Below the pieces are notes generated by a model, which had not been told where the DNA came from, searched no databases, and saw only the letters and a list, made by a program, of their open reading frames with translations. The translations under genes and the position numbers were made by a program. A stretch of DNA of 45,256 bases from a virus, in the IMG/VR virus record IMGVR_UViG_3300048910_000050, positions 1 through 45,256 of that record; one strand, written 5' to 3'. The first letter of the stretch is position 1. The number at the start of each line of letters is the position of its first letter. Of the stretch, positions 4,514-29,925 are shown piece after piece.

Positions 4514-5083
4514 ATGAAACAGATCGCCCCAGCATTCATCAAGGCCAAGCGCGCATTCATGCCGGCCTTGAAGGACAAGAATAACCCAGCTTTCCGCAGC
4601 AAGTATGCCGACCTTGGCGCGTGCCTGGAGGCTGTCGAAGATGCGCTGCTCGAAAACAGCATCGCACTGTATCAAGAGACGTTCGAGGATCAGACCGGCG
4701 TGACCGTCGAAACCGTGCTGCTTCACGAGTCGGGCGAGACGATCCGAGGCGGCAAGCTGCATGTCCCGGCCGCGAAGCAGGATCCGCAGGGATACGGTTC
4801 GGCGCTGACATACGCTCGCCGCTATTCGCTGATGACCGCGTGCGGAATCGCTCCCGAGGACGACGACGGCAACGCGGCAACCAAGGCTGTACGCGAGAGC
4901 AAGCCGGACAGCGTTGGGCTGGCAAATGCCGTGAACGCGATCCGCAACGCTGCCAAGGTTGAGGACATCGCTAAACACCTGAATGCAGCGGTAAAGCTGT
5001 TCCCGAACAGCAAAGACGCCCTGACGAAGCACGCCAGCGAACGCAAGGCACAACTCACGCAACAACTCGCGGAGCAAGCATGA
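4514..5083 (+). CDS. erf: ERF-family single-strand annealing recombinase
   Basis: NPAFRSKYADLGACLEAV, HESGE and QGYGSALTYARRYSLMTACGIAPEDDDG match the P22 Erf-family pattern. Confidence 0.85.
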   Translation: MKQIAPAFIKAKRAFMPALKDKNNPAFRSKYADLGACLEAVEDALLENSIALYQETFEDQTGVTVETVLLHESGETIRGGKLHVPAAKQDPQGYGSALTYARRYSLMTACGIAPEDDDGNAATKAVRESKPDSVGLANAVNAIRNAAKVEDIAKHLNAAVKLFPNSKDALTKHASERKAQLTQQLAEQA

Positions 5084-5388
5084 TCGACCTGACCGCCATC
5101 GACCAAGAGACCATCGTGGCGCGCGGGCAGTACGCCACGGTCCGAAGCGCCCACGAGGACGAGAAGAAGCACCTCTCTATCCTCTGCGGCCAACTGTCGT
5201 CTGTGTCGTCCCAAGTACTGCGCTACATGCAGCCGGGCGAGGACGATGCACCTGACCTGCGTGCGGTAAATGACATGCTGTCGGCCGCGCGCCGAACCAT
5301 GGACGAGATTGAGAAATGCGTCACGAACATCGAGCAACTGGCGGTCCAGCAATCCAGCCTCAGGCAATCGGCATGGGGGCGCAAATGA
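5080..5388 (+). CDS. Hypothetical protein (102 aa)
   Basis: ATGA-coupled on both sides. Confidence 0.6.
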   Translation: MIDLTAIDQETIVARGQYATVRSAHEDEKKHLSILCGQLSSVSSQVLRYMQPGEDDAPDLRAVNDMLSAARRTMDEIEKCVTNIEQLAVQQSSLRQSAWGRK

Positions 5389-5846
5389 AAGAACTGGTCC
5401 TTACCAAAGCCCCGGGCGGCGCGCTGATACCGGTCGATCCGCAGGCGGCCGAATATATCTCGAAACTGAAGCTCGGCGCCGGCGTTATAGCGACCGTAAA
5501 GCTGCACCGAAACCCGCGCTTTCATAGAAAGTTCATGGCCCTTCTCAACGTGGCATTCGATGCGTGGGAGCCGGTCGAAGCAACGTACAAGGGTCAGCGA
5601 GTTGGCAAAAACTTCGACCAGTTCAGGCGGGATATCACGATCCTGAGCGGCCACTATGAGATGGCGGTGAACCTCAAGGGTGAGACACGACTGACGGCCA
5701 AGAGCATCAGCTTTGCCAACATGGACGAAGACGAGTTCGGGAAGTTATACAACGCCGCTTGCGACGTGATCCTGAAACGCATCCTGACCAACTACACCCG
5801 CGACGATCTGGACGCGGTAATCGATCGCCTGATGGGCTTCATCTGA
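5385..5846 (+). CDS. DUF1367-like phage protein (153 aa)
   Basis: The MKELVLTKAPGGALIPVDPQAAEYISKLKLG...HRKFMALLNVAF pattern is recalled from lambdoid DUF1367 proteins. ATG 5385 is coupled to the upstream stop. Confidence 0.7.
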   Translation: MKELVLTKAPGGALIPVDPQAAEYISKLKLGAGVIATVKLHRNPRFHRKFMALLNVAFDAWEPVEATYKGQRVGKNFDQFRRDITILSGHYEMAVNLKGETRLTAKSISFANMDEDEFGKLYNAACDVILKRILTNYTRDDLDAVIDRLMGFI

Positions 5847-7719: not shown

Positions 7720-7904
7720 AAATCATCTTTGGACGCCGGCTGAACACGAACACGATGATGTGGGAATTCAGTGACGGCAGTGGCGTTGCGGTTGCCGATG
7801 AACTGATGCCGCGCCCAGGTGACTCGGTGGACGAGTGGTTCCGCACCAAAGACAGGCTGGAGCGCGCGGCATCTCACGACACGAAAGGATCTCGCGATGA
7901 GTGA
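7716..7904 (+). CDS. Hypothetical protein (62 aa)
   Basis: ATGA-coupled; MKIIFGRRLNTNTMMWEF... Confidence 0.5.
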   Translation: MKIIFGRRLNTNTMMWEFSDGSGVAVADELMPRPGDSVDEWFRTKDRLERAASHDTKGSRDE

Positions 7905-8721
7905 TCAAATGAACCAGTGCGTAGGTTGCGAAGGCAAGCCAAGCGCCGAGAACAATCCATGCTCAGTATGTGGGAGAACCGCTCCTTCCGCCCCTATGGG
8001 GGAAGAACTGCCGGCGATCGATTACGACAGAAGCATGGACCGCACCTACATTCCGCTGCCGGGCGGCTGGGAGATCCAGACCAAGGGCAACGGTAGCACC
8101 TTCCGTATCGCGCACGCACAGCAGCAGACGCGCTGGCAGGTATTGGACGACAAACTGCACGAGCCGCTTGAGGCCATGGCACGAGACATGCGCGACGCCA
8201 TCGCCCCGTATGCCGAGCGTATCCGCCAGCTTGAGCGAGAGCTTGCAACCTTCAAGGGCGAGCTTGCAACCCAGAAGCCCGCTAAGAGCATCGATACGCC
8301 GGAATTCCGCAAGCTGCTTGCTGATTTAGTACGTCGCGCGAGCTACAACATCAGTGGCAAAGCATCCCCAGCCGCCCTCATCGCCTACATCGACGGTCGA
8401 ACCGCTGGGGCAGCACCGGCCGTAGTCGAAGCGGAACCAGCAGTAGGGGCGCCGCGCTCTCGGGAATGGCAACTAGTCACCCGGCCAGGTCAAGTGCGCA
8501 AGGGCGACAAGTTGCGCTTCAAGATCGGCGACAAGAGATACGACGAGCGTGCCAAGCTGATCCTGCACCCAGGCACAGACAAGGAAGAGGTCATCTACGA
8601 CAAGGGCCGGAACTACTATTTCATCACGGCGATGGTTATGTCTGGATTCAGTAACCACAAGTGCGTCGAAGTTCTCGCTGCCGCCCCTACACCTATGAAC
8701 AGTGGGAAGGAGGAAGCGTGA
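7897..8721 (+). CDS. Hypothetical protein with N-terminal CxxC...CxxC zinc ribbon (274 aa)
   Basis: CVGCEGKPSAENNPCSVCG, coiled segment, IDTPEFRKLL module. Confidence 0.7.
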   Translation: MSDQMNQCVGCEGKPSAENNPCSVCGRTAPSAPMGEELPAIDYDRSMDRTYIPLPGGWEIQTKGNGSTFRIAHAQQQTRWQVLDDKLHEPLEAMARDMRDAIAPYAERIRQLERELATFKGELATQKPAKSIDTPEFRKLLADLVRRASYNISGKASPAALIAYIDGRTAGAAPAVVEAEPAVGAPRSREWQLVTRPGQVRKGDKLRFKIGDKRYDERAKLILHPGTDKEEVIYDKGRNYYFITAMVMSGFSNHKCVEVLAAAPTPMNSGKEEA

Positions 8722-9422
8722 ATGAGCTGGCACTTTTCGCAGGTGCTGGAGGCGGAATACTTGGCGGCAAACTGCTCGGATGGCGAACAGTTGTTGCCGT
8801 GGAGTTCAACGCCTTTTGCGCGCGACGACTCATGCAGCGACAAAATGAAGGGCACCTTCCACCGTTCCCCATTTGGGACGATGTACGTACTTTCGACGGA
8901 CGCCCATGGCGAGGCCGTGTTGACGTGGTTTCTGGCGGGTTTCCTTGCCAAAGATATTCCTCAGCGGCTGCGGGCAAAAACAATGCAGATGATCTCTGGC
9001 CGGAAATGCGACGGATCGTGGCAGATGTCGCTCCCGGGGACGTATTTGCCGAGAACGTCGCAAGAGAAGCAATTGAGCGAGCGGCGGACGATCTTGAAGC
9101 GATGGGTTATTCCGTCCGCTGCGTCAGGATGGCTGCGTCAGACGTGGGTGCTGACCATGTTCGGGAGCGGTACTGGTTACGTGCACACACCAACGTGCAC
9201 GGCCAACTACGCAGCGAGGTCGATGCAGAAATGGGCCTGCGCTCGAGAATTCGTCCGGGTGTTTGGGAAACCTACCCCGACGAATCACGAATGGCTGATG
9301 GGCTGGCCCATCGGATGGACCGACTCGCGGCCACTGGCAACGGCCAGGTTCCAATCGTGGCTGCAACAGCATGGCAACTGCTTGAGGAAAGCAGCATGAA
9401 CCCCGCCACCAAGGAGGCATGA
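8718..9422 (+). CDS. DNA (cytosine-5) methyltransferase, short phage type
   Basis: GTG 8718 overlaps the upstream TGA. Motifs appear in order: FAGAGGG (8736-8756), GGFPCQ (8934-8951), ENV (9051-9059), RERYW (9162-9176), GNGQVP (9336-9353). Confidence 0.85.
   Translation: MNELALFAGAGGGILGGKLLGWRTVVAVEFNAFCARRLMQRQNEGHLPPFPIWDDVRTFDGRPWRGRVDVVSGGFPCQRYSSAAAGKNNADDLWPEMRRIVADVAPGDVFAENVAREAIERAADDLEAMGYSVRCVRMAASDVGADHVRERYWLRAHTNVHGQLRSEVDAEMGLRSRIRPGVWETYPDESRMADGLAHRMDRLAATGNGQVPIVAATAWQLLEESSMNPATKEA
8722..9399 (+). CDS. Embedded +1-frame ORF (225 codons) with protein-like sequence ending ...NHEWLMGWPIGWTDSRPLATARFQSWLQQHG
   Basis: ATG start. Balanced, non-junk composition. Motifs are recalled from a methylase-associated phage protein family. 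Third positions are more G/C-rich than in the methylase frame (hand tally). Expression is unproven. Confidence 0.4.
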   Translation: MSWHFSQVLEAEYLAANCSDGEQLLPWSSTPFARDDSCSDKMKGTFHRSPFGTMYVLSTDAHGEAVLTWFLAGFLAKDIPQRLRAKTMQMISGRKCDGSWQMSLPGTYLPRTSQEKQLSERRTILKRWVIPSAASGWLRQTWVLTMFGSGTGYVHTPTCTANYAARSMQKWACAREFVRVFGKPTPTNHEWLMGWPIGWTDSRPLATARFQSWLQQHGNCLRKAA

Positions 9423-9423
9423 A

Positions 9424-10086
9424 ATGGACATCGAAAAGCTGAAGACGCTGGCACTGGCGGAATTTATCGAATGGGCGCGTACGGACGAAGGCAATTGCAG
9501 TCAGGTCGACTTGCGCAAAAGTTTGACCGGCGAGGACACGTTTGCAAGTGCATTGGTCGAGCGCGACTGGATCGTATGGCAAGCAGCCCAACGCGGACTG
9601 ATCGCGGAGGTCGAGCGGTTGCGGGCTGAAGTCAAGGAATGGCTATGCATCGACTGCAACACGGTCTATCCCGGGCCGCCACAGCCCGGCGTTGCCTGCG
9701 TCATGTGCCCGAAGTGCAAAGGCAGCGCTGGTCCGCGTCTAGCCGTGGAAAACAGGCTGTTGCGTGCGAAATTAGCCCGGGACCAAAGCGGCACCAAAAC
9801 GTCTGAAACCCGCATGGATGCTGCGTTTGAGGGTGGGCCTAGCGGCTCAGATGGCAGCACGGCCAATTCTAATTCCGCAGAATTCGACGGAATTAGGGGC
9901 GCGGCTCCCGCAGCGGGAACGGTGGAGGACGTAGACCTGCCGCCACTCCCTAGGCCATTGCCGCTAGGCTGGTCCGGCGGCGGGATGAATAAGCTGGCAG
10001 ATGGGTACAGCGCATCTCAGATGAAGAAATATGCACTTGCAGCTATCGAAGCGCACAACGCCCGGAGCCCGTCATGTGGCTCATGA
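9424..10086 (+). CDS. Hypothetical protein with zinc ribbon (220 aa)
   Basis: CIDCNTVYPGPPQPGVACVMCPKC; complete ORF directly after the methylase gene. Confidence 0.7.
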   Translation: MDIEKLKTLALAEFIEWARTDEGNCSQVDLRKSLTGEDTFASALVERDWIVWQAAQRGLIAEVERLRAEVKEWLCIDCNTVYPGPPQPGVACVMCPKCKGSAGPRLAVENRLLRAKLARDQSGTKTSETRMDAAFEGGPSGSDGSTANSNSAEFDGIRGAAPAAGTVEDVDLPPLPRPLPLGWSGGGMNKLADGYSASQMKKYALAAIEAHNARSPSCGS

Positions 10087-10522: not shown

Positions 10523-11737
10523 TCATGCGCTGCGGAGAGGCACCACATTGGCGCCGATCCGTAGCTGATCCAGATAGTCTGCCCAGCGCTGCATCATCTC
10601 GCGGCGCGCGGGTAGGTGAGCGGTCCTGTTATAGGCCCGACCGTTCACATCCTTGACCGTATGTGCGAGTTGATGCTCGATCAGGTCGACCCGCTCCCCC
10701 AGCACTTCATCCATGATCGTGCGCGCCATGGCTCGGAAGCCGTGGCCCACCATCGTGTTGCTGTCGTATCCCATGCTTCGAAGGGCCATGTTGATCGTAT
10801 TTTCGCTCATCGAGCGACCTGGCTTGAGGCTAGCGAACACATAGCGACCATTGCCGGTGATTGGCTTCAGCCCGCGAAGTATCTCGACAGCCTGGCGCGC
10901 GAGCGGAACGATGTGATCATTCTCCATCTTCATTTTCCCGGCTGGGATACGCCATTCAGCGGCGTCCAGATCGATATCGGCCCATTCTGCCCCTCGTATC
11001 ATATGAGGTCGCTGAAACACTAAAGGCATGAACTTCAAGGCGGCACAGATGACGGCTTGCCCTTCATAGGCATAGATGGCGCGAAGCAAAGCTCCGACTT
11101 TCGCAGGCTCGGTGATCGCCGCAAAATGCCGCTCAACTGGTCTTTCCAATGCATCGGCAATACCTATTGTGGGGTCACGATCAACCAGTTCTGCTACCAT
11201 TGCCATGCGGAACACCTTGCCGATGTAGCCGAGCACCCTATGCATCGAATCCAAGGATCCGCGCGCCTGTATGCGCTTCATGGTCTCCAAGATATCGGAA
11301 GGGCGAATGCTGTTGATAGGGCGACTGCCTAGGTATGGAATCACGTCCCGCTCGAACCAGTTGACGAGACGCCGCTGTGTTTCCGAACCCCGCTGACTGG
11401 CCGTAGTCTGGATCCAGTCTCGCGCGACGGATTCGAAGAGTGTCCCTGCGGCTCTCTGCGCCTCTTTCGCTGCATCCTGCTTCGCGGCGCTTGGATCAAT
11501 GCCAACGGCCAATTGCTCACGCGCCGCATCCCGGCTCTTACGTGCAACAGAAAGCGATACGGCAGGGTACACGCCAAGGGCCAAAGTCTTCTGCTTGCCC
11601 AGATATCGGTAGTTGAGGCGCCAGTATTTGCCGGCCGCTTTGACCAGCAAATAAAGGCCTCCTCCATCGGAATGTTTGTCGCCGGCGCCTGCCCCGCTGT
11701 ATTTGACCTGGCGCACAAAAGTGTCTGTCAATGGCAT
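10523..11737 (-). CDS. int: Tyrosine integrase, P4-like (DUF4102 N-terminal domain)
   Basis: N-terminus LTDTFVRQVKYSG...GGLYLLVKAAGKYWRLNYRYLGKQKTLALGVYP. C-terminal HGFRAMARTIM...LAHTV...AYNRTAHL catalytic pattern. Confidence 0.95.
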   Translation of the reverse strand: MPLTDTFVRQVKYSGAGAGDKHSDGGGLYLLVKAAGKYWRLNYRYLGKQKTLALGVYPAVSLSVARKSRDAAREQLAVGIDPSAAKQDAAKEAQRAAGTLFESVARDWIQTTASQRGSETQRRLVNWFERDVIPYLGSRPINSIRPSDILETMKRIQARGSLDSMHRVLGYIGKVFRMAMVAELVDRDPTIGIADALERPVERHFAAITEPAKVGALLRAIYAYEGQAVICAALKFMPLVFQRPHMIRGAEWADIDLDAAEWRIPAGKMKMENDHIVPLARQAVEILRGLKPITGNGRYVFASLKPGRSMSENTINMALRSMGYDSNTMVGHGFRAMARTIMDEVLGERVDLIEHQLAHTVKDVNGRAYNRTAHLPARREMMQRWADYLDQLRIGANVVPLRSA

Positions 11738-13661: not shown

Positions 13662-15740
13662 TTAGCCGGTGACGGCGATGGAGGTAACGATTGCCTCCCA
13701 ATCGACCGTGCCGCCGGCAGCAAGGCCGGTGATCTGCAGCGAGACAACGCCAGCATTGGCCGTCGAGTCCGTCAGCACCCAGGTGGCGTTGAGCAGAGCG
13801 TCGGACTCGTACGAGTAGATGCTTGTGGGTCCGGACAGCAGCGCGGTGTTGGTCGTATTGGTCCGCGCGTAGGTGACGAACTTGTACATGGCGGTTGCAC
13901 CGCTGGCCCCTTGCTGCTTCGCCAATACGGTGGCTTCGAGGATCGTGCCGCAGTTGTTGTTCAGCGACTTGGCCCAGATGTTCACCGGCGTTGCATTGGC
14001 CGTCGACACCTTGCGAATTTTCGTGACGTTGCTCCCGGTCGGCTGCGCATCCAGAATGATGCCGGCTGTACCCGAGATGAAATTCTCTTCGCAGTACGTG
14101 CAGTCCACGCCGCCGCCACCCAAGATCAGGGCATAGCTGTACGTCGGTGTGTTCTGGGTGACCTTCGGCGCGATCAGCTTGTTGCGCGTGCCCGAGATGT
14201 TGAATGCTCCATATGAGCCGCTGGATCCGGTACTGGCTCCGTTCACGAAGCAACTCGTGAGCGTGCAGTTCAGCGTGCTCGCAGTCAGCACAATGCCATC
14301 ATGGTTGATGTCGTGGCAGCCGCAGGCGGTCATGTTGATGTTCTCGACCGCGTTCAGGTAGAAGCCATTCGTGCCCGTGCCACCGTCTTTCGCCGTGCAG
14401 CCGATCAGATGCCAGTCGTAGCCGCTCTGGATGTCGAAGCAGGCGCCGCCGTCTGTGCCGGCCGTGACGCAGTTCGACAGGACCGTACCTTGGCCCACGC
14501 CGCGGATGATGAAGGCCGGGCCGTTGGAGTTGTCCGAGATGCAGCCACGAATGCGCCCCTCGATCACGCTGAGGAAGTAGAACGTGCCGCCGCCGAAGCC
14601 GGACGACCAGACGTTATCGACAACCGGCGTGCTGACACCGTTCATGTACAGGCCGTAACCGCTGGTGTAGTTCCACGTCGGGCCGGCGATCGGCGCAATG
14701 AAGAAGTCTTTCAGCAGGTGATTATTCGTACTGACACATTCGATTGCGTTGCCCGTGGCCGCGTAGTAGAAGACTGCGGACCCGATACCGTAGCCGATCA
14801 CGTTGACGGAAAGCGGGATCGACAGCGTCGTGTCGTAGACGTAGTACCCGTACGTCAGCGACACGGTGCCGGTCAGACCGTTGATCGAGTACTGGTAGCC
14901 GGCGAAGTTCAGCGCAGCCTGGAGCGCCGGTGCGTTGCGCGCCGCGGCTGCCGCACGGGCCGAGAAGTCGGCGCCTACCGGCGCATGGAGTCCGTCCGCG
15001 ATAGCGCCCCACCATTCCGGGAAGATCAGATCATTGCGGATCGTGCCGACGACTTTGCCAGTACCGGTGCACTGGAAAATCTGCTGCCGGCCGGCGAGCA
15101 GTTCGGTGTTGGTCATCGTGACCGTGACACCGTTCGGGATGATCAGCTTGGCGCCCGCGTGGAAACGCAGGGCCGCACCAGTGGGAATCGTCAGATCCGA
15201 CCCGATCAGATACGACCCCTTCGGGAAGTACAGTTCAAAGTCGGTGAAGTCCGACGTCAGGTTTGTGAGCATCGTGTTGATCGCATTGCGATCGTCGGTG
15301 ATGCCATCGCCGACAGCGCCATAATCCTTGCTGCCGAAGTGGTCACGCAGCTTATTCTGTACCGTGCGCAGCACCGCGCCAGTGGTGGACTGGATGAAGC
15401 CGAGCAGAGACGAACCAGCCGACGAGGCTGCGCTGGCGATGAAGGCGACGACGCCGAACGGGTCGGATTTGTAGTTGTCGACCGTGTAAATCGTGCTGCC
15501 GGCCGAATCCTTGAGGACGACCTTGTAGGATCCATCCCAATAGATCGGGCTGTCTGGTTCGCCTCGGGCGTTGAGGATGATCGGGTTAGCTTGCGGGACG
15601 AGGCCGGCAGAGTCGGTATAGGTTGCCTTCGGCGTAGTCGTGCCGGCAGCATAGGTGTACACCTTCCCGCCAGCGAGCGGGCGCCCATTGGGCGAGTCGA
15701 AGTATTGCTGCTTCGGGACGGGCATCAGGGCGGTAGTCAT
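13662..15740 (-). CDS. Tailspike / depolymerase with pectate-lyase-like beta-helix
   Basis: SKDYGAVGDGITDDRNAI motif, a long Gly/Thr/Asn-rich repetitive beta-helix-like body, and an N-terminal fibre-type domain (GGKVYTYAAGTTTPKATYTD). Confidence 0.85.
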   Translation of the reverse strand: MTTALMPVPKQQYFDSPNGRPLAGGKVYTYAAGTTTPKATYTDSAGLVPQANPIILNARGEPDSPIYWDGSYKVVLKDSAGSTIYTVDNYKSDPFGVVAFIASAASSAGSSLLGFIQSTTGAVLRTVQNKLRDHFGSKDYGAVGDGITDDRNAINTMLTNLTSDFTDFELYFPKGSYLIGSDLTIPTGAALRFHAGAKLIIPNGVTVTMTNTELLAGRQQIFQCTGTGKVVGTIRNDLIFPEWWGAIADGLHAPVGADFSARAAAAARNAPALQAALNFAGYQYSINGLTGTVSLTYGYYVYDTTLSIPLSVNVIGYGIGSAVFYYAATGNAIECVSTNNHLLKDFFIAPIAGPTWNYTSGYGLYMNGVSTPVVDNVWSSGFGGGTFYFLSVIEGRIRGCISDNSNGPAFIIRGVGQGTVLSNCVTAGTDGGACFDIQSGYDWHLIGCTAKDGGTGTNGFYLNAVENINMTACGCHDINHDGIVLTASTLNCTLTSCFVNGASTGSSGSYGAFNISGTRNKLIAPKVTQNTPTYSYALILGGGGVDCTYCEENFISGTAGIILDAQPTGSNVTKIRKVSTANATPVNIWAKSLNNNCGTILEATVLAKQQGASGATAMYKFVTYARTNTTNTALLSGPTSIYSYESDALLNATWVLTDSTANAGVVSLQITGLAAGGTVDWEAIVTSIAVTG

Positions 15741-27952: not shown

Positions 27953-28927
27953 TTAGACGGCAGCGGGATTGATCAGGCCCGACTTGTCAGCCACGGCAGT
28001 GATCATCGAGTAGTTGTTCTGGAAGCCCAGCTTCGTGCCCGTGGGGGCCAGCAGGCCGGCCGAGTTATCCAGATGCCACGAGTAGTTGTCGTACACGTAG
28101 CCCGTCGAGCCGGTGGAGCCGCCGCTGAACAGGGAGCCGCCAGTCGTGCTGGTCGATGGGCGGAACACCTTGTTGCGGCCCATGTTGAGGTTCGTGTGGT
28201 TGTTGGCGCCGAAATCGACCAGAGTCGCGGTGTCGTTCAGGATTGGGTACACGACGAAGTTGTCCATGTAGGACTGGCGGTCGTTCGCTGCGGCCATGAT
28301 GCATGCCTGGGTGGCGGCAGTCGTGGCAAGGCCGAAGACCTTGTTGTTCGAGAACGTGAAGCCGTCCATCGAGTTCGCCGTGGCGTTGCCGGTGACGCAC
28401 TTGATGAAGTTCTTGTTGGACGCCACGTCGCGGAATTCGCACGAATCGACCGTGAAGTCGGTCGGCGTTGCTGTGCCGGTGGCCGTGTATGCGGACACGC
28501 AGTCCGCCACGTTGGCCAGGTGCAGGATGTTGTAGACCGTGACGTTCGCCGCCGTGACCGGGATATTGGCCGTGGCGTTCGTGCTGAACGTCAGGGTAGG
28601 GCGCATCGAGCCGACACCCATGCCGACGATAGCGACGCCGGCCACGTTCAACGCCAGATTGGTCGTCGTGGTGATGGTTTCCGCATGGCCGGGCTTGACG
28701 AAGATGATGTCGCCGCGGTTGGCCACGCACTGGCTGACAGCGTATGCGATGGTCGAAAACGGGCTGTCATACGTGCCCTTGTTACCATCGGAGCCGCCGC
28801 GCTGGCCCTTTTGCAGGGCCGTGCCGTTGTAGACCCAGAAGACTTGGCCCGGGTTGGTGGTGACGAGCGGTACGTTACGGATGGTGATGCCACTGGCAAA
28901 ACCGCCCGGGAAGTTCGAGTAAGGCAT
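27953..28927 (-). CDS. Right-handed beta-helix (pectin-lyase-fold-like) protein directly downstream of the capsid gene (324 aa)
   Basis: ATG 28927 follows GGAGAA. DSPFSTIAYAVSQCVANRGDIIFVKPGHAE, then repetitive N/T/G/V-rich turns. Confidence 0.7.
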   Translation of the reverse strand: MPYSNFPGGFASGITIRNVPLVTTNPGQVFWVYNGTALQKGQRGGSDGNKGTYDSPFSTIAYAVSQCVANRGDIIFVKPGHAETITTTTNLALNVAGVAIVGMGVGSMRPTLTFSTNATANIPVTAANVTVYNILHLANVADCVSAYTATGTATPTDFTVDSCEFRDVASNKNFIKCVTGNATANSMDGFTFSNNKVFGLATTAATQACIMAAANDRQSYMDNFVVYPILNDTATLVDFGANNHTNLNMGRNKVFRPSTSTTGGSLFSGGSTGSTGYVYDNYSWHLDNSAGLLAPTGTKLGFQNNYSMITAVADKSGLINPAAV

Positions 28928-28935
28928 GTTGTTCT

Positions 28936-28964
28936 CCAAAAAGGAAAGGACGGCCGAAGCCGCC
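28936..28964 (-). terminator. Hairpin plus T-rich tract after the major capsid gene (partial terminator or stabiliser)
   Basis: Minus-strand reading is ggcggc-ttcg-gccgtc followed by ctttcctttttgg. Confidence 0.55.
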
Positions 28965-29013
28965 CATTTCATTTGCCGGATAAGACACCGGCACTGCTGG
29001 CATTCCGGTTCGC

Positions 29014-29925
29014 TTACGCGCCCTGGCTGCCCCACCATTCGCGGAAGTCGCCGATCTGCACCGAATAACGCTCAGTTGCAGCCGCGAGCGCGTTTTGGGT
29101 GTTGAAGTCGTTGTCCTTGGCGAATTCGAGTTCACGACGCTGGAACAGCGTCAGGCCGTCTTCCACATCGGTGCGGATGAAGAACGCGTCCGGATCGGTA
29201 AAGAAGTGGTTGACCTTGAAGCCTTCCGGGAACGTGCCCATCGCCCGCAATGCGTTGATCGCGTTGTTGGCGGTGTCGTTCTGGTTGATCGACTTCAGGA
29301 TGCGGGCCGCTTCGAACTCCAGTTGACGCGGGATGTGCAGCGAACGCACCTGCATGGCGATCTTGTTGCCCCGGTCGTCGGTCGCGCCGTTGGCCTGGAT
29401 GACCAGATCTTCCAGCGAGGCTTCCGACAGGTCGGCAGCGGTCGCCAAGGTGTTGCTCTGGTTACCCGAGGACGACGTATGAGACGTCGAGAACAGCGGC
29501 TTGGAGTCCGGGCCAACGTTGTAGTTCGAGTCGAAACCACGGTTGAACCAGTTCGCGACGACTGTGTTTTTCGTCTCGACCATCGCACGCTTCAGAGCCT
29601 TGGAGCGCTGCATTGCCAGCTTCTCGTAGAGGTTGTCCTCGATGGCCTCGCGCGTGATGATGTAGCCCAGGGCGTACACCACGTGCAGGGCCGTGGCGGT
29701 GCCGCCCTGACTCGTGGAGTCGTAGGGAATCGAGCCGCCTTGCTCCTTGATGGCAGCCAAGCCGAAGCCGTTGTTCTGCACCATCTCTTCGCGATGCTTG
29801 TCGGAGGTCTGGACGGTGACCAGATCGCGCCATTCGTCGCGGTTGTTGTAGGACATGCCGAACATGCTGAACACGCCCGGCCAGAGCGCTTTGGGATGGG
29901 CGCCAGTAGTGATAGTTCCAGGCAT
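29014..29925 (-). CDS. Major capsid protein
   Basis: 303 aa. It follows the scaffold and decoration-like genes and is followed by a terminator-like hairpin. The sequence pattern is typical of podovirus HK97-fold coat proteins. Confidence 0.8.
   Translation of the reverse strand: MPGTITTGAHPKALWPGVFSMFGMSYNNRDEWRDLVTVQTSDKHREEMVQNNGFGLAAIKEQGGSIPYDSTSQGGTATALHVVYALGYIITREAIEDNLYEKLAMQRSKALKRAMVETKNTVVANWFNRGFDSNYNVGPDSKPLFSTSHTSSSGNQSNTLATAADLSEASLEDLVIQANGATDDRGNKIAMQVRSLHIPRQLEFEAARILKSINQNDTANNAINALRAMGTFPEGFKVNHFFTDPDAFFIRTDVEDGLTLFQRRELEFAKDNDFNTQNALAAATERYSVQIGDFREWWGSQGA

Follow-up and report, generated by a model that had tools for sequence, protein, structure and literature searches.

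The viral record IMGVR_UViG_3300048910_000050 of IMG/VR, whose 45,256 nucleotides (59.5% GC) are here called the window and supply all coordinates below, carries a C5 cytosine methyltransferase gene with a second open reading frame (ORF) embedded in it. The outer frame, A, is open from 8661 to 9422 on the + strand, and initiation at its GTG at 8718, which agrees with the start sites of homologues, gives a product of 234 amino acids, referred to below as alpha. The inner frame, B, runs from an ATG at 8722 to a TGA at 9399 on the same strand, is shifted +1 relative to A and specifies a 225-amino acid product, beta; B (8722-9399) lies wholly inside A (8718-9422), and the overlap between the two is 96%. 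Both ORFs and their translations are as given in a preliminary description made from the letters of this DNA alone.

The two starts share their surroundings. As read from the sequence, a single Shine-Dalgarno-like element, AAGGAGG (8707..8713, +), is common to both, 4 nt before the GTG of A and 8 nt before the ATG of B, and in 47 relatives with a match to such an element the spacer to the A start is mostly 3-6 nt, which places the B ATG at 7-10 nt. The B ATG itself (8722..8724, +) is made by codons 2 and 3 of A (AAT GAG). It stands directly 3′ of the TGA (8719-8721) of an upstream ORF, 7819-8721, whose frame is also that of B, and this stop codon overlaps the GTG of A (GTGA) and abuts the ATG of B (TGAATG). 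Because of this overlap and abutment, translational coupling with the upstream ORF is suggested, and termination-reinitiation from it could feed either the A or the B start.

Frame A (8718..9422, +) has the motifs of the catalytic large domain of a C5 cytosine methyltransferase in canonical order, as the preliminary description had listed them. Motif I, FAGAGGG (8736..8756, +; codons 7-13), overlaps the conserved N-terminus of B, MSW.FSQ.LEAEY; motif IV, GGFPCQ (8934..8951, +; codons 73-78), includes the catalytic Cys77, with S72, G73, G74, F75, C77 and Q78 invariant. Motif VI, ENV, is at 9051..9059 (+; codons 112-114), motif VIII, RERYW, at 9162..9176 (+; codons 149-153) and motif X, GNGQVP, at 9336..9353 (+; codons 207-212). 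Motifs I and IV are in one frame with their residues invariant in 68 homologues, and motifs VI, VIII and X follow in the same chain. Frame A matches PF00145 (E=1.4e-18), phrog_363 ‘DNA methyltransferase’ (E=9e-50) and also TIGR00675, and in a related phage the N-terminal 162 residues of the frame-A product match M.HhaI and M.HaeIII in the PDB. What is absent from this chain is the small domain, comprising the target recognition domain (TRD) and motif IX, that would be expected between motifs VIII and X. The PF00145 match extends over profile positions 4-163 of 324 only, codons 162-209 (9201..9344, +) form a linker for which AlphaFold2 (AF2) gives a predicted local distance difference test score (pLDDT) of just 29-40, and motif IX and a set of PTP motifs are found in frame B at this place; the small domain is therefore judged to lie outside frame A. 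Amino-acid conservation of A drops to 0.14-0.26 over codons 156-190.

Relatives were fetched by homology to frame A alone, giving 80 viral loci at 45-83% identity, and four annotated phages bring the number to 84. In every one of them the +1 frame has no stop between nt +4 of A and approximately the end of A; the +2 frame of these relatives has 7-21 stops per gene. When synonymous codons are permuted within each of 72 unique genes, with the A protein and codon usage fixed, 234 stops are expected in frame B over codons 1-155 and another 28 over codons 156-183, about 262 in total, and the number observed is zero. For eight other genes of the window, taken as controls, the observed stops were near those expected, at 4-27 each.

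The B start is constrained as well. At codon 2 of A, 64 of the 72 genes have AAT and none has AAC, with asparagine elsewhere in the same genes encoded by AAT 262 times and by AAC 322 times, and the B ATG is present in 69. Among these 69 the A start codon is ATG (44 genes), GTG (15), TTG (5) or a non-start codon (5). In L019, L039, L044, L050 and L070 the A start position is occupied by TTA, CTA, TTT or CTT with the B ATG kept 4 nt downstream, and alpha must there start further upstream or be made in some other way. Several four-fold degenerate sites of A are nearly fixed, namely those of Ala10 (GCT, 60/64), Gly11 (GGT, 62/72), Arg41 (CGA, 64/72), Val68 (GTT, 66/67), Gly195 (GGG, 70/71) and Ala197 (GCC, 69/70). 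At other four-fold sites of A the codons are fully mixed, which shows that unconstrained positions are saturated. In deep pairs, those with less than 55% A identity, three of the four regions compared show a B identity above the synonymous-shuffle null: the leader (A codons 2-95; B 0.41, null 0.28, A 0.66), the motif IX region (A codons 184-205; B 0.53, null 0.22, A 0.44) and the tail with motif X (A codons 206-221; B 0.39, null 0.23, A 0.60).

A further argument for B in the preliminary description, its codon bias, proved to be an artefact. GC content by codon position is 0.70, 0.50 and 0.55 for A and 0.50, 0.54 and 0.71 for B, and since the high third-position value of B (0.71) is simply the first-position value of A (0.70), it is no evidence for B. 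The real genes of the window resemble A in having the highest GC at the first position. The same property means that gene callers often pick B.

The division of labor between the frames can be followed along the locus from the conservation of codon positions. The pattern is A-like (position 2 > 1 > 3) over codons 1-155, low at all positions over 156-185, B-like over A codons 186-205, where A position 3 reaches 0.73-0.81 with position 1 at 0.56-0.61, and A-like again over codons 201-220. The selected reading is accordingly EWLMGWPIGWTD, motif IX in frame B, at 9289..9324 (+), and GNGQVP, motif X in frame A, at 9336-9353. That the motif IX bases are common to both frames had been noticed before; A reads them as RMADGLAHRMDRL, and the choice of B is also indicated by alignment with gp6 of mycobacteriophage Corndog. 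Between motifs VIII and IX is a variable region of 37-150 codons, and across 149 loci it has 259 ‘TP’ dipeptides when read in frame B and 12 when read in A; for PTPxx[ASRT] motifs the counts are 78 (B) and 2 (A), rising with insert length (rho 0.60). From this excess, frame B is the one in which the TRD-like module is read.

The comparisons show that both frames are kept open, and the B start with them, and that A and B alike have conserved amino-acid sequences. The contention of the preliminary description that B is not a by-product, and that the locus is a case of near-total dual coding with overprinting, is supported by the conserved open frame, the conserved B start, the suppressed synonymous sites and the frame-B conservation at motif IX; the comparison of homologous loci that it had proposed finds just this openness and suppression (84 loci; 72 unique genes). 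Homologues of B do occur solely as alternative-frame translations of methylase genes, which it had set down as one half of a refuting condition and which holds here trivially; the other half, stops in relatives, was not found.

Frame B (8722..9399, +), identified by profile matches as well as by its openness in all relatives and the shuffle test, is divisible into a 140-residue overprinted leader and a TRD-like plus motif IX module. The module, predicted to fold, is at the C-terminus (residues ~146-218; 9157..9375, +) and consists of a hairpin, the segment HTPTxTANY..SMQKW, helices, motif IX and a conserved PL..F..W..H tail, with H155, T158, N162, S167, M168, K170, F181, E190 and M193 invariant. 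Its last 40 residues match phrog_26627 and phrog_35493, which are small and of unassigned function, and phrog_1008 ‘DNA methyltransferase’; longer variants of B from Acinetobacter, Salmonella and Stenotrophomonas phages match phrog_1008 over most of their length (E=5e-28). B also aligns to Corndog gp6 from W..E.S.T.P.G..RNG through motif IX (E=2e-14), its segment EWLMGWPIGWT pairing with EWMMGWPDGW, which in gp6 runs on into motif X. From the phrog_1008 matches, the homology to Corndog gp6 and the design found in Paenibacillus larvae phage Jacopo (below), B appears to be the methylase's own small-domain half, and not an unrelated family. The preliminary description had taken B for a recurrent phage and prophage family found beside methylases; it is recurrent, but it is always encoded inside them, carrying their motif IX and TRD-like segment. 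An idea that A-type and B-type C-terminal families were frameshift copies of each other was replaced, as both are read from the same bases and constitute one family. When the last 76 residues of B were used as query for in-frame single-chain methylases, only 15 short proteins were returned.

In AF2 models of A, built with a 68-sequence multiple sequence alignment (MSA), residues 11-160 (pLDDT 70-90) and the motif X helix at 211-224 (~79) are confident on either side of the poorly predicted linker, and in that of B, built with an 88-sequence MSA, the confident part is ~150-205 (pLDDT 60-87). The confidently predicted parts of A and B are, in the models, complementary along the DNA: residues 1-140 of B sit over the ancient motifs I-VIII of A and, conversely, the A linker sits over the B module. 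The features of an overprinted (de novo) coding region, one frame being ancestral and structured and the other lineage-restricted and predicted with low confidence, are present here, and the length of the B leader differs by lineage, from ~70 overlapping codons in Corndog to a start at about A codon 68 in Jacopo and at codon 2 in the clade of the window.

The arrangement is widespread. Frame A has at least 8000 protein clusters, with an identical protein in JGI called methyltransferase, and frame B has 997 (90% identity clusters) at E<=0.01; a B profile search of 1.84 billion proteins gave 8355 representatives (50% identity) at E<=1e-3, and 3844 at <=1e-10. A second sample, of 80 bacterial loci selected by frame B (26-68% identity), includes Burkholderiales, Pseudomonas, Acinetobacter, Halomonas, Citrobacter, Akkermansia, Patescibacteria, Planctomycetota and Synechococcus. 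In about 75 of these 80 an open A contains motifs I, IV, VI and X, with motif IX, and never X, in B; the median overlap is 254 codons, B without A was never encountered in the 80, and frame B stays open from phylum to phylum at a B identity of 26-30%. In three loci of the set (L121, at about 1710; L154, at about 1626; and L144) frame A is broken by one stop codon, located in the linker, shortly ahead of motif VIII or inside it, with the downstream motif X reading of A still recognizable and B intact; decay of a prophage copy, a sequencing error or read-through could account for them. In L163, L166 and L170 both frames are intact. A tblastn search with a longer B variant found 123 phage records, of which 48 are from phages of Paenibacillus larvae and 34 from mycobacteriophages of Cluster O, where two overlapping ‘DNA methyltransferase’ coding sequences are annotated. 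The complete genomes of E. coli yielded only four weak partial DNA matches.

The nested two-frame methylase design is rare and already known, having first been shown for M.EcoHK31I, an alpha/beta C5 methyltransferase from E. coli HK31 (Lee, Kam & Shaw 1995, as presented in PMC2836561 and PMC3404938). There the whole of beta is specified by a different frame of the alpha gene; motifs I-VIII and X belong to alpha and motif IX to beta, and the two separately expressed chains must associate for activity. The window, set beside M.EcoHK31I by published description only, has the same nesting, here kept in 84 plus about 75 loci, and the same partition of motifs I-VIII and X from motif IX. It differs in that its beta, with 225 codons to the 234 of alpha (96% overlap), is nearly the longer chain's equal in length and begins 4 nt past the alpha start behind the same Shine-Dalgarno element, in that its TRD-like segment is in the beta frame, and in its location, M.EcoHK31I being part of a type II restriction-modification pair and the enzyme of the window being encoded in a temperate-phage early region with no nuclease among the neighbors searched.

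A different division is exemplified by M.AquI, where alpha has motifs I-VIII and beta IX-X (Karreman & de Waard 1990, as cited in PMC3404938). It is a naturally occurring C5 methyltransferase of two subunits, divided within the variable region as the enzyme of the window would be, with the difference that its motif X is in beta and that of the window in alpha. Corndog, of Cluster O, and Arthrobacter phage ArV1 (067a/067b) have this type of split, in which alpha ends after motif VIII and a partially overlapping beta has the TRD and motifs IX and X. Corndog gp7 (frame 0) stops just after motif VIII and gp6 (+1, ~70-codon overlap) has a PTP segment, EWMMGWPDGW and IGNGVCPQQ, with motifs IX and X in one frame as also in ArV1. 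The likeness to the window is that frame 0 has the catalytic part and +1 the TRD with motif IX, the overlap falling on the motif VII-VIII segment of A; the overlaps there are ~70-90 codons and motif X is in beta, whereas in the window alpha reaches X and the overlap is total. For Corndog gp6/gp7 the explanation was left open, the candidates being two subunits, a frameshift, a ribosome hop or an intron; no splicing was seen by reverse transcription PCR, and similar arrangements were noted in other phages (Cresawn et al. 2015, PMC4351075). The nested design recurs in methylase pairs of Paenibacillus larvae phages such as Jacopo gp56/gp57, both annotated as methyltransferases in GenBank, where a 351-amino acid alpha (I-VIII, long linker, X) has a 234-amino acid beta embedded at +1 and ending after motif IX; this is a Firmicute phage, and its beta begins ~68 codons into alpha, compared with codon 2 in the window. 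The comparative paper that was checked has no discussion of the nested arrangement. In phage lambda, Rz1 is a +1-frame gene wholly inside Rz and the products of the two act together; in cases of that kind the shared stretch is short and the inner gene specifies a small, new protein, whereas the two frames of the window split one ancestral enzyme over ~225 codons. Literature on overlapping genes, overprinting and dual coding, taken together with methyltransferase and phage, gave nothing specific, and precedents came to light only under EcoHK31I and Corndog. The 96% overlap, the paired starts behind one Shine-Dalgarno element, the frame-B reading of the TRD and the very wide distribution were not found described.

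In light of this, the locus probably encodes a C5 cytosine methyltransferase made of two polypeptides, the gene for beta being nested in that for alpha, a reading to which sequence comparison, the structural models and analogy all contribute. Alpha would supply the full catalytic large domain (motifs I-VIII) together with the motif X helix, a low-confidence linker replacing the usual small domain. Beta, initiated 4 nt after alpha from the same Shine-Dalgarno element, would have its 140-residue leader running through the catalytic region of alpha before the TRD-like PTP segment and motif IX. Both would be translated, for which selection on the two frames and on the B ATG is indirect evidence, and, by analogy with M.EcoHK31I, assemble into the active enzyme, and their shared start region would set the alpha:beta ratio. 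As no restriction enzyme or nuclease was found among the neighbors searched, the enzyme is likely an orphan phage methylase, which may protect the phage DNA.

A plausible history would begin with a split of the Corndog/M.AquI type, alpha having motifs I-VIII, beta the TRD, IX and X, and the two overlapping by ~70 codons. An indel between IX and X would then have shifted X into the frame of alpha, and the beta ORF would later have been extended 5′ as far as the ribosome-binding site of alpha. The B tail PLATARFQSWLQQHG (9336-9375) aligns with the motif X stretch of Corndog gp6, ADKLWIIGNGVC (L090), and the spacing from motif IX to X is ~16 codons in A vs 25 in Corndog; the shorter spacing and the tail alignment fit a frame-shifting deletion between IX and X in an ancestor of the nested form.

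Several observations weigh against the two-chain reading and need to be kept in mind. Frame B is without a match in Pfam, NCBIfam, PADLOC, PDB sequences or Foldseek/PDB, which means that of the two translations for which profile searches had been advised only A was placed, by PF00145, in a Pfam family. Residues 1-140 of B are at pLDDT <50 in the AF2 model. In the middle region (A codons 96-155) B identity in deep pairs is 0.20 vs a null of 0.19, with A at 0.40. Lastly, the predicted TRD of M.EcoHK31I has been placed in alpha, not beta, in the literature, and in the window the PTP-type motifs of the variable region are, as counted above (78 vs 2), in frame B.

The first of these points bears on an alternative in which alpha alone is the working methylase and beta an accessory or unrelated overprinted protein, such as a regulator, a specificity modulator or an anti-defense factor. 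Alpha does have the S-adenosylmethionine-binding and catalytic motifs and an intact motif X helix, and the beta leader, besides B being without a match in curated families, has a lineage-specific length. Yet it is exactly the best-conserved part of B, motif IX with the TRD-like segment, that is homologous to the C-terminal half of split methylases, and alpha would be left without a folded small domain and without motif IX in its own frame. Given also that B never occurs without A in the 80 B-selected loci and that the motif IX subunit is required in M.EcoHK31I, independent activity of alpha is considered unlikely.

A smaller likelihood still attaches to synthesis of a single-chain methylase by recoding, with ribosomes translating A, shifting +1 after motif VIII into B for the TRD and IX, and shifting −1 back into A for X. 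The A-B-A reading has the attraction of placing the motifs in canonical order, I-VIII, TRD, IX, X, and a frameshift, a ribosome hop and an intron are the options that were named for Corndog gp6/gp7 (PMC4351075). Recoding would nevertheless not account for a B frame whose openness and conservation begin at an invariant ATG 4 nt after the A start, nor for an A frame that stays open across the linker in almost all loci. Moreover, the motif VII-VIII segment of A and the W..E.S.T.P.WG..NG segment of B are on the same bases, and one chain cannot carry both. By eye there is no homopolymer or obvious slippery run in 9289-9353, no systematic shift-site scan having been made on any locus, and M.EcoHK31I is active when its two chains are expressed separately. 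In comparisons of chimeric A-B-A and A-B proteins with Pfam and the PDB the match was not extended past motif VIII; such chimeras were dropped as support for ancestry or recoding, neither being shown by the Pfam and PDB matches. That B has no function and is a shadow ORF arising from composition and from the amino-acid sequence of A is hardly credible: its GC3 does equal the GC1 of A, which makes GC3-driven callers favor it, long alternative-frame ORFs are common in a window of this GC content and AF2 confidence is low for most of B, but against this stand the absence of stops where ~262 are expected, the 7-21 stops per gene of the +2 frame, controls that behave as expected, an ATG made invariant through AAT, conservation at motif IX that follows frame B, openness across phyla at 26-30% B identity and a sample that is not near-clonal (45-83% identity in A).

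Beyond the two-chain enzyme, it is possible, though more doubtful than not, that the whole-gene overlap is itself a selected device and no leftover, in which the paired starts fix the alpha:beta ratio, the beta leader helps beta to find or hold alpha, target recognition sits in beta and specificity evolves by frame-B insertions in the alpha linker. If so, this would be among the largest and longest-conserved same-strand dual-coding systems in prokaryotic viruses, with thousands of members in many bacterial phyla and their phages, and the Corndog gp6/gp7 question would be settled in favor of two subunits. Long same-strand overlaps in prokaryotes are disputed, and the present locus has very strong comparative support together with a design validated experimentally in M.EcoHK31I. 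Among the relatives the overlap grades from 70 codons up to total nesting, and the series shows how an enzyme can be divided along its structural domains between two frames. From a practical perspective, a recoded clone of ‘the methylase ORF’ would silently destroy beta.

There are also consequences for annotation, as gene callers give A (methyltransferase) or B (mostly ‘hypothetical’) and almost never both, with the result that a subunit of a common phage enzyme is missed or misnamed. In Ralstonia phage Gerry (L001) only B is annotated, as ‘hypothetical protein’ 23F_00035; in phiRSP (L002) only the last 130 codons of A are; in SOVA965 (L085) a frame-B fragment is labeled ‘DNA-cytosine methyltransferase’; and in Jacopo (L091) both nested genes are annotated. 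Gene callers sometimes retain only the C-terminal piece of B: the short predicted proteins P0121-P0135 (53-125 amino acids) and the phrog_26627 and phrog_35493 families (~70 amino acids) are the B C-terminal tail alone.

The ORF 3′ of the locus, 9424-10086, is without a PHROG match and begins 1 nt past the A stop (TGAAATG), and from this packing the genes around the locus are one tight operon. An Erf-like gene (4514-5083) and NinB (5316-5846) in the early region, a tyrosine integrase (10523-11737, −) and a tail-spike-like gene (13662-15740, −) mark the window as a temperate phage or prophage. Along its whole length many ORFs of 200-700 codons on both strands overlap likely real genes (e.g. 28065-28766, −, and 27953-29071, −), an abundance expected at 59.5% GC.

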